This document shows positions 21,001 through 27,000 of a DNA stretch of 64,000 bases, piece after piece. The DNA lies in contig CBDVDR010000004.1 of NCBI GenBank assembly GCA_965372795.1, positions 128,001-192,000 of the forward strand, read 5' to 3'. Made by a program: the position numbers. Position 1 is the first letter of the stretch. Every line of letters begins with the position of its first letter. The DNA is from an uncultured bacterium. GTDB lineage: Bacteria > Zixibacteria > MSB-5A5 > GN15 > FEB-12.

Positions 21001-24000
21001 TCCCGGTGGAGTATCACATTTCAAATATGGAGATGCTTTTATGCCATCAAATAAAAGATTCCTACGTTCCAGATAAATATCTTTCATCTCATTGATACAA
21101 TTTTGAGGACCATTTAAAGCCGCCACCCCGCCATATTGCGAAGGAGTAGAAACACCGTTGATAGTGTATAGAATCATTTTCTTAATGTTATCAGCAAATT
21201 CTGATGAACTGCAAACTACATATCCAAGCCGCCACCCGGTCATCGCATAACTTTTTGAGAATGTGAAACAGGTTATGATTTTGTTCCGGACTTTAGCTGG
21301 GAAATCCTTTGCAAGTGACGCTATACTAACATGTTCCGACTCATAAATGATATCTTCATAAGCTTCGTCAGAGATAATATATAAATCATTTTCCTCAGCT
21401 ATTTTTAATAATTCAAGCAGCAACTCTTTGGTAATAACCCCTCCGGTCGGATTCTGGGGAGAATTGATTAAAATCGCCTTCGTGGATGGCGTTAGGCTAT
21501 TTTTTAATTCATCCATATCCCAATTATAGCCTAATTCAGGGCGCAATTTTACTTTTTTAAGTTTCCCCCCAGCCAGTTTAATCATCCAGGCAGTGGCGGT
21601 CCAGTTGGGTTGAGGGATGATAACTTCATCACCCGGGTTGAGTATTGTTCGCATTGTGCAATAAATTCCATGCATACCGCCATTTGTAACCACGACCTTC
21701 CCAAGACCATCAAGATAATCAATACCATTTTTTTCTGTAACTTTTTTAATAATAGCTTCTTTTAACGGTTTAATACCTGTCGAAGGTGCATAATGGGTTT
21801 GATTGTCAGTAAGAGCTTTAAACATAGCTTCTTTAATATGTGATGGAGTATCAAATGATGGTTCGCCTGATTCTAACCTTAAGGGATTGTCAAGTTGCAG
21901 TAACCGATCTCGAACCGTAACAATGCCTGAAAAAACTACATCTGGTAGTTCTCTATTCAAAAATTCACCTCTAAAATTGATTCGTTAGTTTCATCTGCTT
22001 GTGTAATAATTTCACCCTCGGGGTTTACAACCATTGAACAACCGCCAAATTCAGTTATATTGTCATTCCCGACCCAATTTATAGCTAAAATATACACATT
22101 ATTGTCTTTTGCGCGTTTTTGGAGAAGTTCTTTCCAGTCCCCAATTCTCACTCGTGGAAAAGCTGCCGGTACAAATATTTTTTCTGCTCCCATTTTTGCG
22201 AGCTGACTGAACAATTCAGGAAACCGAAGGTCATAGCAAATAACAGCCCCGGATTTTCCAAACGGAGTGTCAAATAGAACAAGATCCTCACCCGGAAGAA
22301 ATGTCTCCAGCTCTCCCAAAGGTGGAAAAAGATTTATCTTATTGTATATTTGATATTTACCATTTTGATAATACAAATATGAATTATAAATACCATGTGG
22401 CGTCTGGTATGGAATTCCTATCATTATTGAACAATCAAACTCTTTTAGAGAATGAATAATATTCTCAAATGGTTCAACTTCTCTTTTCTTATACAAATAG
22501 CCCGAACTTCCCAGTTCAGCCAAACAGATCAAATCAGCCCCATCAGACGCTTTTCGAATTGAATCCAGATAATCTGTATTATTAATGTTTTGTTGTATCA
22601 GTTTTAAATTCATCTTGCCTTTGAAGGGCTATGTATTTGATGTAAAAACCTATTTCTGGTACAAATAACCATAAATTTGTTAAAAAGTCAATAACGACAA
22701 TAATTTTTATGGACTTTTCTTGTCTATTTTACTATTATTACAAGTAATTCTAATAAAGTTTAATGAAAGTTAGTGACTTTAACTTTATAATTGATTTTTT
22801 AAATAAATTCCCTTTTATTTAAAAGTCACTGACATAATCTGTCACAAAGAAGATGGTAAATATGCTTGTTCTGTTAATTGATGATGAAGAGATGATTTTA
22901 AATCTCGGAAGTAAAATCCTTCATAGAGATGGTCACGAGACTCTTGTTGCAAAATCGGGATCTCTTGGAATTGATATTTTTAAAAAAGAAAAGGTCGATT
23001 TGGTAATAATTGATTATCTCATGGATGGTCTTAGTGGAATCGAAACTCTTAGAGAAATTCGTAAATTGAATTCATCAACCCCATGTGTAATTTCAAGCGG
23101 TATATCCAACATTTCAAATGATATACCTGAAGAACTGCTTGAACATACCTATTTTCTTGAAAAACCTTACAATGCAAGGGATTTTAAGGAATTAGTAGTA
23201 TCAATTCAATATAAATAACCATCCCTAATTCTATAATTTAAAAATATTCCTTTAAAATACAGAAAATTATGCCTATTTTCCGTCAATTGTATAATATCAA
23301 TCTTTAATGAATTTGAAATTTAAATATGCAAAATTTTCTTAAAATTATTTTTCTTGTATTACTCTTCTCTTTTCAGAGTGTACCTCAAATTTTGGCTGCT
23401 GATAAATTTATCCAAAAAGTAAAAATCGGCTTTTTTGAAGGTGGGAATTCCCCAACCCATGCCTTGTTGCGGTCTGAGTATAAACGGGTCCTTAAGCAAA
23501 TCCTGCCTGAGGAATATAAAATACAATACACGCCTAATGGGTTTAAAACTGCTCTTTGGAATAGAGACACCTGCCGAACAATGGCAATGGAACTCTCAAA
23601 CTCCAATGATGTGGACATTATTGTTTGTTTCGGACCATGGGTAGTCGAGGAACTTATTGAGGCTGGATGTAAGAAACCGATAATTGCGATTCATCGAATC
23701 CACCCTATAGAAGAAAAACTGATCAATCAAAATAATCAACCGATAGTTGAAAATCTGACCTTTCAATTTAAACCGAACAAAATCCAGGATGATATTTTAG
23801 CTTTTTATGATATTTATCAATTCAAGAAACTGGGAGTGCTACTTTTTCCAACCGGTGATGAACGTAACAATATCATAAAAGAAATTGAGATTATCGGTGA
23901 AAAAGTCGGGTTCGAAGTTTATTCCGCAGAAGGTAACAACAATGTCGGCACCTTCGCCTTTTTCAAATCATTTAACGAACTTAATAAAAAAGAGATTGAT

Positions 24001-27000
24001 GCTCTTTATCTGTTCCCTCTATGGGGGCTTGATGTTGTTCAACTCGGTGAATTTCTAAAATTAGTCAACAGCCAGCAAATTCCATCATTTACTTACGAAG
24101 GGAATAATCCGGTTCAAAGGGGAGCCATGGCTTCCAACGGAACCCTTTCATTCATTACTGATGCAAAATTCAACGCCTACAAAACAGTTCAAATAATCCG
24201 TGGGAAATCTCCATCAGAGTTAGAGACTATCTTCCCGGAACGATCAGTGCTGGTTATCAATGAAAAAACAGCAACAACTTGTAATATCGAATTAGATCGA
24301 AAATTTTACTATAATTCAGATATTTTAACACCTCCTCCTTCTGAAGAAATCAATCCGATCTCTCTAATTGATGCCGTATCTTTAGCCTTGGCTCAAAACC
24401 CGGGATATCTGGCAAAATATGATGCTTTGGAAGCAGCCAATCATGCCGCCCGACAAGCTTCAACCGATTTTTATCCAAAGATTGATCTTGGATTGTCAGC
24501 CTTTCATATTGATGACAACAGTGTTAACAATTCTCATAACTGGTATGACAATAATGGCTATGATGCAACGATTACATACGATCAGCAGCTTTTTTCTCTT
24601 GAGAGTATCAAAAAAGCAAAAGCAATCGCTTTTGAAAAAGATTTGACCGAATTAGACCTTAATCAGGCGAAATTAGATCTCGAACTCGCAACAACCAAAG
24701 CATATCTTGATTATCTAAAAACTCAAGAAATATATGCTTTAACAAAACAGAACCGCGAACATATCAATCTTTATTATGAGATTGCCCGTTTAAACTCTGT
24801 TCTCAACAATGCTGATACCGCCGATATCTTCAGGTGGGATAATGAATGGTATAATGCATCTGCTGATGTAATAGATTCCCGATTTAATTTTTTGAAGGCT
24901 CAACTTGTATTTCGAACTCTGCTTAATCTCCCCCCTGAATATGAAATCACACTCGACACAAGTTTGTTTACTACCGAAAACATGCTTGGTGAATACCGGC
25001 AAATTTATAATTACACCGGCACCAAAACAGAACAAATTTTCCTTCAGGATTATCTATACAAAATTGCCTCTTCCCTCCATCCTGAAAAACAGAGCATGAA
25101 TGTAAGGATCAACCTTGTCTCTACTTTGCTTGAAAAAAACAAAGCCCGTTACTATCCAAAAGCGGGCGTCCGCACCTCATTCACCTATGCAGACCGCCTT
25201 AATGATGATTTTCCCGGTATTGAAGAAAAACACAACAGCTGGTCAATTTTAGGTTATTTAAAACTCCCGCTGTTTAGCGGTTTTGATCGCTCCCGTGAAA
25301 AAGCAAAACTAAAGGCAAAGCTGAGTGAAACTGAATACCTTCGAGATGCAAAATCTCTTGAAATTATGAATGCTATCTTTAATAACTTTTATGATATGTT
25401 AAGCAACTCCGATCAAATGCCATCGGCACATCGTTCTCATAAAAAATCCCGGATTGTTTTACAAATTGCGGTTGAAAATTATGAAAGTGAAATAATTTCT
25501 TATATTGAACTTCTTGATGCTCAAAAAAATGCTTATAAATCAGATAATAGAATGATTAATTATCGTTATAATTATTTCAACTCACTTGCAAATCTTGTCA
25601 ATGTAATCGGATTGAGTATGTCAGACCGGTTAATGGGATTCAACCAGTTGTTTATAGAGCAGCTTGAAAACTACAATTCTGAAAATTAAGAATTCAGTTA
25701 ATATAGTTTTCCAATAAATGCCAATAAAGCTTATAGATAATAATTAATGTAACGATTGAAGCTGCAACCGTTCTCATATTTTTCATAAATTTATTGTCTT
25801 TAAACGGTATAATTTCTTTACCATTTCGGACTCTTATAAAAACACGAAAATAATTTATCAACGATGCAAAGATGAATATCAAACTGGCAGCCATACAAAA
25901 TACAATACCAAAATCAAAATAACTTATATAACTTCCAAGCAGTAAAGTTATAGATGCAAAGGCATATTTACCGGTCAAATTTGACGGAATTATTAGATCG
26001 TTTTTTTTCACGAGAGTTGAACCGGCAATAATTATCAGCAGGTCTCTTCCGATAATTATTGAGGCTAACCAGACTGGAAAATCCCGGTAAAAAATTAATA
26101 GCCCGACAATTGCCAATGCCATAACTTTATCCGACAATGGATCGAGAATCAACCCCAGCCGACTAACTTTGTTTAGTTTGCGAGCCAGATAACCGTCTAA
26201 GCCATCAGTAATTCCTGCCAGACCGATAATCAACAGACAATAAACAGGATTCCATTTCCCCCCAGATGCAAGAAAGTACCAGATAAACGGCACCATAAAT
26301 ATCCGGGAGAGACTTAATAAATTGGGTATTTGAATCAAATCTTTTAACATATTTTATCCATAACAAAGATCAATATGCTGTTTTTTAAGATAAGAAGAAA
26401 GAAAAATGTCTAAAGGCAGTTATTGAAATGGAAGATGCTCGTAGATTATCGGTACTAATACTTTTTCAAGATCATCAAGAGCTTTAATACTTTCTTCCTG
26501 ATCTTCAACTATAAAACGAATAAAAGCGACTTCGCGAGGTTCAAACATCAACGAGCTAAGCATCGAGTAAATTTTAAAGATATAATCATTTGAAGTTTCG
26601 CCATAGTTGGTAACATACCAGAAATCCATTACCTGTTTATTTTGATCCTGCTGAATCTGGATTCGTCCGATTGAAAAGCTGCGCTCGTTAATAAATATTA
26701 CTTGTGGTTCTGAATCTTTCAGAACCCAGCCGGAACCGGGCAGACAATTTCTTGGAGAGTGTGGTCCGCCGAAACTTCCTTCAGTAATAAAAAAGTCAAA
26801 TAGGACTTCAACTCGAACCCCGTCACTGTTTGTAAAGTTTGCTGAATAAATTTCTTTAGGTTTTAGCAAATCAAGCACAAAAGCCGGAACATCATTTATC
26901 TCCGCCTTCCAATCGCCTACTTCTTCGGGGAAATTACTAAAATCCACTGAAACGGTGGATTCTGTTTGATAAAATCTTAGTAACATCGCCAAAACGAAAG

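Follow-up and report, generated by a model that had tools for sequence, protein, structure and literature searches.

A gene in the window, a 64,000-nucleotide stretch of DNA from a member of the Zixibacteria, encodes a protein that joins a periplasmic-binding-protein domain to an outer-membrane duct. The evidence supports a fusion that is both real and conserved, between a two-lobed domain of PF04392 type, or Venus flytrap, and a complete TolC protomer (Table 1). The protein is very probably an efflux duct, the OMF of tripartite pumps. The preferred reading of the whole, held tentatively and at somewhat less than even confidence, is an orphan TolC-type duct with a collar of flytraps that would close on a ligand and tune the duct. 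The architecture is apparently undescribed in papers; no description of the fusion was found in the literature searched.

Table 1. The fusion gene, its parts and the gene upstream, in window coordinates
Feature	Position	Strand	Description
CheY-like single-domain response regulator	22853..23218	+	Pfam Response_reg 3.6e-18; 108 bp upstream of fusion gene
Fusion gene	23326..25689	+	One ORF, 787 aa, ATG start; signal peptide, PF04392 flytrap, linker, TolC protomer
Signal peptide, residues 1-24 (MQNFLKIIFLVLLFSFQSVPQILA/AD)	23326..23397	+	Putative; read from translation
Flytrap domain, residues 25-340, type I periplasmic-binding-protein fold	23398..24345	+	AF2, Foldseek, profile match
Linker, residues 335-346 (ILTPPPSEEINP)	24328..24363	+	Short, Pro-rich; family alignment
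Complete TolC/OMF protomer, residues 347-787	24364..25686	+	Two OEP repeats; TolC profile alignment

The preliminary description of the gene as a single ORF of this length was borne out. Pfam returns the same value as before for OEP (PF02321), 9e-33 (114.1 bits against a cut-off of 22), over two stretches, the best at residues 349-534. In the genome search, the two OEP matches lie in one frame (contig positions C4:152370-152927 and C4:153132-153608). ABC_sub_bind (PF04392) passes its gathering score at residues 64-324, with 37.5 bits against 25.9. This domain call stands, and only its value of 2e-09 differs slightly from the earlier 2.8e-10 at residues 63-324. Both curated NCBIfam subfamily scores are missed, with 83.6 bits against 225.15 for TIGR01844 (TolC type) and 45.6 bits against 210.05 for TIGR01845 (NodT type). 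By sequence, the TolC part is a divergent OMF member. The signal peptide has K6, a hydrophobic core, and ILA/AD, as read by eye from the translation, and a hydrophobic N-terminus is common to the fusion homologues in the alignment. Inspection found no lipobox cysteine in the fusion's signal peptide, so the N-terminus would be TolC-type rather than lipoprotein-type. Across the family, the linker has the consensus APPxE.

The TolC part is collinear with its namesake. A single end-to-end alignment joins the family profile to residues 3-406 of E. coli TolC (E 5e-41), in agreement with the earlier view of a complete protomer; the match to OprM is weaker (1.6e-23). E. coli TolC (PDB 1EK9; PF02321; TIGR01844 type) likewise has two OEP repeats and a signal peptide without a lipobox. 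The fusion differs from it in the 316-residue flytrap that precedes residue 3 and in its score under the TIGR01844 cut-off. Equivalents of Tyr362 (Y719) and of the tip residue D374 are kept, the equivalent of R367 is not, and about 18 extra profile positions lie in the equatorial region relative to TolC.

The match to TolC begins at profile position 344-345, equal to TolC mature residue 3, after a linker of roughly 12 residues. TolC helix H1 belongs to the equatorial domain, as a 2021 Chem Rev article describes it. The flytrap had been assigned to the duct's periplasmic end; an alignment that starts at mature residue 3, with H1 in the equatorial domain, would instead place it at the mid-tunnel belt, half-way along the periplasmic tunnel, and not at the tip. 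In a trimer, three flytraps would then surround the tunnel, near the site that YbjP occupies on E. coli TolC, as the eLife 2026 papers present it, and near the start of the lipid tether of other ducts. In that account, YbjP is a previously unnoticed equatorial-belt partner that binds TolC at 3:3 (PDB 9V52, 9TG4) and is compatible with the AcrAB and MacAB pumps. The fusion may be likened to this complex, in which the non-lipidated TolC has a globular accessory domain at its belt. YbjP is, however, a separate lipoprotein, of the DUF3828 type by that account, and is unrelated to the flytrap in sequence or fold, whereas in the fusion the domain is part of the duct, carries no lipid, and has a flytrap fold.

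Such a position would also suit a structural brace or anchor. In that role, the flytrap would no longer bind a small ligand and would act as a rigid collar, steadying the trimer or fixing its place between outer membrane and cell wall. It would be the counterpart of YbjP, which acts in trans for E. coli TolC, or of the N-terminal lipid tether of OprM/CusC-type ducts. The fusion has no lipobox, and its extra domain is joined exactly where, going by the eLife 2026 structures, YbjP binds and where the tether starts. Yet YbjP is dispensable for efflux under laboratory conditions by the same account, whereas the flytrap is more constrained than the channel. A brace is considered somewhat unlikely, and the conservation data given below bear on it from both sides.

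A search of the 5.8-billion protein set with residues 1-345 matched 14 further proteins (E 1.6e-115 to 3.3e-64). Each is 778-803 aa long and has PF02321 and PF04392 precomputed, as had been said of 17 proteins before; the shared architecture held, and the count with this query did not. One of the 14 is named 'TolC family protein [candidate division Zixibacteria]'. The genome search gave fusion matches in 36 of 41 genomes, with near-full-length frames of 783-853 aa in about 28 of 40 relatives (read from the table). Some relatives' frames are short or split (651, 629, and 264+633 aa), and in genome G005 a TAA lies inside the frame; the interrupted frame and the one of 651 aa had both been noted earlier. 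In the order, the fusion is near-universal in three families, where 137 of 145 genomes encode it (f1 103/107, f2 5/5, f4 29/33), mostly in single copy, and it was not found in the fourth family, f3 (0/14 genomes). Conservation through the order, as first proposed, therefore holds for three of the four families.

The N-domain is a flytrap by fold as well as by profile. Modelled alone, it has a pLDDT of 96.0 and a pTM of 0.93, with alternating strands and helices (AF2). A fold search of the isolated domain, previously lacking, gives 3lkv, 3lft, and 6hni as the best PDB matches (Foldseek TMq 0.77-0.79, TMt 0.82-0.84, E about 1e-18). The family profile matches the same entries at E 4e-18 to 4e-13. 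They are the three solved PF04392 binders, VC_1101 (3LKV, Phe), SP1069 (3LFT, Trp), and CD0873 of C. difficile (6HNI, Tyr). Glutamate-receptor amino-terminal domains appear among the Foldseek matches from rank 9. The model is nearer to the closed, liganded form of CD0873 (TMq 0.77) than to the open form (0.65).

These binders, together with TrpX, share Pfam family and fold with the N-domain at an identity of only 17-20%. Their hinge NxT motif, present as NLT, and their C-terminal GxxPxxLP helix region are also kept in the fusion. What changes is the set of motifs that all three solved binders share: GPW stands in place of xTPx and LWG in place of xDN, so that TP becomes PW and DN becomes WG, and SD is lost. 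Among the CD0873 residues named in the text of its paper, where the amino- and carboxyl-group binders appear only in a figure, Glu-263 aligns with E258 and Pro-236 with P231. Val-235 is replaced by Leu and Ala-262 by Ser/Thr, and Tyr-279 aligns to a variable position. Glu-263 hydrogen-bonds the bound tyrosine (CD0873 paper). The ligand-binding module of the preliminary description is sustained only as a fold: the binders' common motifs are replaced, and no ABC importer lies nearby.

Shared family and fold, together with the ligands that PMC10443332 gives for PF04392 structures (L-Trp, L-Tyr, and L-Phe), might suggest an ordinary ABC-importer binding protein, tethered to an outer-membrane protein and still delivering an aromatic amino acid to a permease. 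This is almost certainly wrong. No importer permease or ATPase was found among the window neighbours or in the conserved neighbour clusters flanking the gene in 58 stretches; a divergent ABC pair in 14 of them is an MsbA-like exporter. Besides the replaced motifs, the closest free-standing relatives of the N-domain are only 23-27% identical to it. Free or lipid-tethered PF04392 binders dock on an inner-membrane permease, whereas this domain is covalently joined to the N-terminus of an outer-membrane duct by about 12 residues. From the mid-tunnel belt, and on the 14-nm TolC geometry as the sources consulted give it, such a linker should not reach the inner membrane.

The flytrap is conserved better than the channel. 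Over one set of 49 proteins, the N-domain has a mean pairwise identity of 43% and the TolC part one of 31%, and columns conserved at 90% or above number 50 of 316 against 20 of 443. The cleft side was taken, from fold expectation, as the positions just after strand ends. On that definition, 13 of 45 cleft-side positions are conserved, compared with 37 of 271 elsewhere and 6 of 45 on the opposite side. The strength of this conservation and its enrichment in the cleft-side loops of both lobes suggest that the flytrap may bind a small ligand. For a brace, conservation would be expected at the interface with TolC, and the kept hinge motif also speaks against that role. The replaced amino-acid motifs speak for it, as does the comparison with a sister subfamily of the same architecture. 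There, most of the residues conserved only in the window gene's subfamily are not kept (P104, W105, F174, P175, W233, E258), and the seven residues of a GTxAxFK stretch are missing. The two subfamilies have in common only W78 and structural Gly/Asp/Asn/Ala positions. W78 does not occur in the solved SBPs, and its presence in both fusion subfamilies is what an interface residue might show. The cleft thus differs within the family. Its differences would fit differing specificities and would also fit a non-binding role, and the conserved inter-lobe loops could reflect permanently closed, ligand-free packing. A ligand-responsive flytrap is accorded slightly less than an even chance.

The assignment as an efflux duct draws on gene context as well as on the TolC alignment. 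No MFP or pump genes adjoin the window gene, nor do any adjoin the fusion across 57 subfamily loci, which extends an observation first made for the window. This absence counts against the preferred reading, as does the low TIGR01844 score. The tolC gene of E. coli also lies away from pumps, in a genome where some pumps lack a duct of their own. Of the 11 MFP genes in the window's genome, five adjoin the five other OMF genes. The other six lie in pumps without an OMF gene (2 RND and 4 MacB-type ABC), and one of these duct-less RND pumps is CzcA-type (1160 bits against a cut-off of 701). In genomes G000, G013, and G027, every OMF apart from the fusion has an MFP nearby, going by coordinates. The f3 genome G040 has many MFPs without an OMF nearby, no orphan OMF, and no fusion, so an orphan duct is not a necessity. 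In the sister subfamily, 9 of 10 loci have an MFP gene next on the same strand, followed by an AcrB-type RND in all 8 loci with room for one. The sister pump operons and the six duct-less pumps together lead to the reading as an efflux duct, and they make the partner pump, left open in the preliminary description, less of a question.

CusF is a free periplasmic binding component dedicated to the tripartite RND pump CusCFBA (copper/silver). The sister operon fusion-MFP-RND resembles CusC plus F, B, and A, with the differences that CusF has another fold and is free. By this analogy, the flytrap would bind a pump substrate in the periplasm and pass it to the adaptor or pump. Its sister subfamily is hard-wired to one RND pump each, cleft residues differ between the subfamilies, as expected if specificity tracks the pump, and one duct-less pump of the genome is CzcA-type. 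The sister-operon pumps themselves, however, are best matched by the generic multidrug subfamily model, below its cut-off, and not by Cus/Czc models. The window gene's subfamily is orphan and would presumably work with several different pumps, but it has a nearly invariant cleft. The equatorial belt is also far from the RND and MacB substrate entry near the inner membrane, in the geometry of the literature consulted. A substrate-catching role is distinctly improbable.

In the preferred reading, the protein would be a non-lipidated orphan duct like E. coli TolC, probably serving the genome's duct-less pumps. Each protomer would carry a diverged PF04392 flytrap at its mature N-terminus that feeds no ABC importer. 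Its cleft would be rebuilt, with Trp, Pro, Phe, Tyr, and Glu replacing the amino-acid binders' motifs under stronger constraint than the channel. The flytrap would close on a periplasmic ligand and, through the short Pro-rich linker, tune duct stability, opening, or pump-adaptor engagement. A narrower form of this reading, a ligand-gated or licensed outer-membrane duct, is quite unlikely. In it, belt flytraps would close on a periplasmic small molecule and alter the opening of the TolC aperture or adaptor engagement, with the rigid linker to helix H1 and the enlarged equatorial loop as coupling elements. The CheY-like regulator encoded upstream may belong to the same circuit. Such a duct would be an outer-membrane bacterial counterpart of the flytrap-on-channel design of glutamate receptors.

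In glutamate receptors, too, a membrane conduit bears a covalently attached clamshell of the periplasmic-binding-protein superfamily, and the same is true of OpuA and GlnPQ, in which binding domains are fused to ABC importers. Those conduits lie in the inner or plasma membrane and have known gating or delivery roles, whereas that of the fusion is in the outer membrane. No example of a flytrap fused to an outer-membrane conduit was found in the literature searched. In the usual view, TolC-type ducts are passive and shared exit pipes, with their opening governed by the pump adaptors alone. Here, across three of the four families of a bacterial order, a ligand-binding fold is fused to the duct, probably at the belt to which YbjP attaches, and is kept better than the channel. 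Ligand binding by the flytrap would give the first indication that an efflux pump's outer-membrane component can itself sense chemistry. If the flytrap is a brace, it would be a second, independent solution for anchoring a non-lipidated duct. On either reading, the three-gene operons of the sister subfamily offer a compact system for testing.

Of the 58 stretches, 26 have a response-regulator homologue, which in 20 of them immediately precedes the fusion gene on its strand. The genome has just one stand-alone PF04392 protein, and the genes that accompany it code for a HAMP histidine kinase and three receiver proteins rather than an ABC importer. Both observations would suit a signalling input, in which the flytrap would signal the presence of a periplasmic ligand, or the duct's state, to a sensor kinase and thereby to the upstream regulator. 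This is very improbable: no kinase is a conserved neighbour of the fusion in the 58 stretches, more than half of the loci lack the regulator, and the stand-alone protein has no pairwise similarity to the fusion N-domain (BLASTP E 0.78).

Between the response regulator and the fusion gene, no terminator-like site was found on the + strand. The CheY-like regulator is a frequent neighbour of the fusion gene and is regarded as a candidate member only.

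By its sequence, the N-terminus of the fusion looks like a Sec signal peptide that lacks a lipobox. Pfam detects an ABC_sub_bind domain, PF04392, over residues 64-324 (2e-09, over the gathering score) along with two OEP repeats (9e-33), and among NCBIfam models the C-terminal part is closest to TolC-type factors, under the curated cut-offs. Fourteen further proteins of 778-803 aa in a large protein set match residues 1-345 (E 1.6e-115 to 3.3e-64). All 14 have both PF02321 and PF04392 precomputed, so the fusion is not an assembly accident. A gene-fusion artefact is also ruled out by an open frame kept in >130 genomes.

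The N-terminal domain is a two-lobed binding-protein domain or flytrap. Searched alone against all 50%-identity cluster representatives, it matches 626 of them at E <= 1e-3, of which 97 reach E <= 1e-30. The strong matches are nearly all fusions of ~780 aa, and free-standing relatives (350-420 aa, 23-27% identical) begin only at ~E 1e-17. Two close non-fusion relatives, P0109 and P0121, carry PF04392 twice in tandem; P0109 (745 aa, Desulfococcaceae bacterium) is named ABC transporter substrate binding protein by NCBI. Another near relative, P0129, has a single PF04392 domain behind a long N-terminal region. Databases label the fusions only as 'TolC family protein', except for one JGI name that gives both domains. 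The ESM Atlas uses the same label for its clusters (772-831 aa); of the three shown, two have PF04392 on 10-11% of their members. Its taxon labels are unreliable. No description of a TolC/PF04392 binding-protein fusion was found in full-text searches on TolC, outer membrane factors, PF04392/COG2984, or TolC in Zixibacteria. The TolC-superfamily survey of 2022 took out Candidatus taxa, and the terms 'fused', 'additional domain', 'extra domain', and 'N-terminal domain' are absent from the available portion of its text.

The preliminary description had based the binding domain on a moderate Pfam score and a predicted fold and lacked a fold search of the domain by itself; the call is now borne out by predicted structure and by sequence. 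The predicted fold of residues 25-340, built from a 119-row alignment (pLDDT 96.0, pTM 0.93), was compared with the PDB using Foldseek. The top ranks are 3LKV (Vibrio cholerae VC_1101), 3LFT (Streptococcus pneumoniae SP1069), and 6HNI (Clostridioides difficile CD0873), the only solved PF04392 proteins (TMq 0.77-0.79, E ~1e-18). Next, at E ~1e-8, come binders of the ribose and Leu/Ile/Val types and the amino-terminal domains of glutamate receptors. The model is closer to the closed, tyrosine-bound form of CD0873 (0.77) than to the open form (0.65). At the sequence level, a 49-row profile of the domain recovers these three proteins as well (E 4e-18 to 4e-13), and the assignment no longer depends on the Pfam score.

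Three of the order's four families have the fusion as a near-core gene, present in 103/107 genomes of f1, 5/5 of f2, and 29/33 of f4. It is found in 0/14 genomes of f3 and in 2/125 of the other sixteen families. Across the phylum, the N-domain profile matches 140 of 285 genomes at E <= 1e-20, and most genomes that have the fusion carry a single copy. The titles of 77 related loci, retrieved with a 15-row alignment as the query, are almost all Zixibacteria MAGs, with some Ignavibacteriales, GN15, or plain 'bacterium'. In a few relatives (G005:C35:5801-8128, G016:C4:73068-75331, L085, L114, and L116), the gene is interrupted by one in-frame TAA or split into two adjoining frames at varying points; these are sequencing errors or recent decay. 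At L090 (CAWGEP010000006.1) and G099:C6:8276-17460, the locus is doubled in mirror image, in the order transferase, downstream gene, fusion, regulator, fusion, downstream gene, transferase, with one copy split into two frames or containing stops. The doubling reflects either a duplication as a palindrome or an artefact of long-read assembly.

The channel part is TolC-like throughout. The family profile aligns in a single stretch to Escherichia coli TolC residues 3-406 (E 5e-41) and more weakly to OprM (1.6e-23). Compared with E. coli TolC, the fusion family has ~18 extra positions in the equatorial region; at the tip, the equivalents of Tyr362 (Y719) and D374 are retained, whereas that of Arg367 is not. 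The flytrap ends ~12 residues ahead of the start of the TolC match, in a linker with a conserved APPxE. According to the available text of a Chem Rev 2021 review, helix H1 is part of the TolC equatorial domain, which is also where the OprM lipid tether begins. Because the short linker leads to TolC residue 3 and H1 lies in the equatorial domain, the flytraps, three per trimer, should sit on the belt around mid-tunnel. They would not be at the periplasmic opening, where the preliminary description had placed the binding module. The same belt of E. coli TolC is bound 3:3 by the lipoprotein YbjP, which remains bound when the channel opens and which efflux in laboratory tests does not require (eLife 2026, available text). 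The main rival to a ligand-responsive role, a ligand-free brace like YbjP, draws on this likeness and is somewhat less likely than that role.

A second fusion subfamily, traced from two weak matches outside the order, places the architecture in an operon context. It occurs in 11 genomes from eight families, and three f1 genomes carry it as a second copy. Most of its frames span 770-898 aa. Among themselves its N-domains share 33-42% identity (29% for the weakest, G203), against 20-29% with those of the first subfamily, to which the gene in the window belongs. At the thresholds used, Pfam detects ABC_sub_bind in just three of the ten fusions examined; the locus in G239 was left out as too fragmentary. 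An RND-type adaptor follows the fusion on the same strand in 9/10 loci, the exception being on a 6.9-kb contig, and an AcrB-family permease comes next in all eight loci with enough contig. These operons argue more strongly than any other finding that the architecture is part of tripartite efflux pumps and that adaptors can dock with the flytrap in place. The fusion is very probably an efflux exit duct. For the permeases, the best-scoring model is that of a generic multidrug RND subfamily, under its cut-off, and not Cus/Czc. That the flytrap is a substrate catcher like CusF is a lesser alternative.

The first subfamily is consistently orphan. ORFs were called mechanically in 58 stretches, made up of the window plus 57 related loci no shorter than 9 kb; 57 of the stretches contain the fusion ORF. 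When 15 adaptors, 4 RND, and 4 MacB proteins were compared with the 736 ORFs by BLASTP, only one MacB-like ORF was found, at the edge of one locus. A PgsA-like CDP-alcohol phosphatidyltransferase gene is convergent to the fusion in 45/58 stretches. The transferase is also present in each of the 14 f3 genomes, where there is no fusion, and the adjacency is therefore read as inherited synteny and not as a partnership. A divergent pair of MsbA-like ABC half-transporters is found in 14/58. Directly downstream on the same strand is a D-serine-dehydratase-like gene (11 stretches) or an NDH-2-like gene (8). A promoter scan gave 16 sites versus 16.6 in shuffles, no excess.

The genome of the window has six outer-membrane factor genes and eleven adaptor genes. 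Five adaptors adjoin the five ordinary factors, and the other six belong to pumps without such a gene nearby, two RND (one CzcA-type) and four MacB-type ABC. The CzcA-type heavy-metal pump (G000:C8, L118:3320-8070; 1160 bits, cut-off 701) has a long 558-aa adaptor and no adjoining outer-membrane factor gene. In two complete genomes, G013 and G027, the fusion is likewise the one factor that has no nearby adaptor. In G040, an f3 genome, there is no fusion and no orphan factor, yet ~nine adaptors have no factor nearby, so pumps can evidently borrow ducts from other operons. Adjacency in these three genomes was judged by eye from coordinates. Pairing by orthology was rejected: the RND proteins of the sister operons match the window's genome at only ~25% identity, so no partner pump can be named this way.

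Over the same 49 proteins, the flytrap is more constrained than the channel. Mean pairwise identity is 43% versus 31%, and 50/316 versus 20/443 columns are at least 90% conserved. Proteins of this fold take up the ligand between their two lobes, where the strands have their C-terminal ends. Conserved positions make up 13/45 just after strand ends, 6/45 on the opposite side, and 37/271 elsewhere in the flytrap; the enrichment after strand ends (p = 0.015) is indicative only, since the sequences are related. Conserved cleft-side positions include W78, G103-P104-W105, F174-P175, P231, W233, and E258-G259. In the alignment to the solved binders, TP is replaced by PW, the DN common to all three by WG, and the SD after the hinge is gone; the NxT of the hinge is retained, as is the GxxPxxLP region at the C-terminus. 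In the available text on CD0873, Glu-263 hydrogen-bonds the tyrosine hydroxyl, and Val-235 and Pro-236 are also named. Among the residues that this text names, E258 aligns with Glu-263 and L229/P231 with Val-235/Pro-236. The sister subfamily retains W78 and the structural Gly, Asp, Asn, and Ala positions and is without P104, W105, F174, P175, W233, E258, and a seven-residue GTxAxFK stretch. The favoured reading, held tentatively, is that the flytrap may be a ligand-responsive accessory of the duct. Other readings do not easily account for a cleft that has been rebuilt, is rich in aromatics, and is more tightly constrained than the channel, and subfamily-specific cleft residues are also seen in binding proteins with different ligands. 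An ordinary importer binding protein is a lesser alternative, with both gene context and geometry against it.

A single-domain response regulator gene is present in 26/58 stretches and lies directly upstream of the fusion on the same strand in 20, including the window. The only stand-alone PF04392 protein of the genome (318 aa, E 1.7e-39) is encoded outside the window (G000:C1, L124:3785-8832), and its gene overlaps the start of a HAMP-HisKA histidine kinase gene. Behind it lie two single-domain response regulators and a hybrid receiver-kinase, with a TonB-dependent receptor divergent. The locus looks like a binding-protein-dependent two-component sensor and not an ABC importer. A further lesser alternative, that the flytrap is an input to two-component signalling, draws on the regulator upstream of the fusion and on this kinase and its three receiver proteins, encoded with no importer. 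Recent origin of the flytrap from the stand-alone gene was ruled out (BLASTP E 0.78).

In family f4 (L031, L028, L036, and L037), the gene ahead of the fusion on the same strand encodes a conserved protein (361-396 aa) that has no match in Pfam. Two of these loci have an ECF sigma factor and a small unknown gene further upstream, and three of the four have two convergent HtrA-like PDZ proteins downstream. The setting looks like one of envelope stress.

Positions of the fusion gene and nearby features in the window
Feature	Position	Strand	Remark
Fusion gene	23326-25689	+	One ORF, 787 aa
Exosortase (EpsH type) and EpsI-like partner	26420-27882	-	Just past the convergent transferase gene
Large secreted protein pair	30216-32315 and 33457-35997	-	Type IX secretion C-terminal sorting domains
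PEP-CTERM protein	36446-37039	+	9 kb beyond the exosortase pair

Of the secreted pair, one protein carries fn3 and purple-acid-phosphatase-N repeats and the other thrombospondin type 3 repeats. The exosortase/EpsI-like pair adjoins the fusion again in a few close relatives (clusters c20 and c21).
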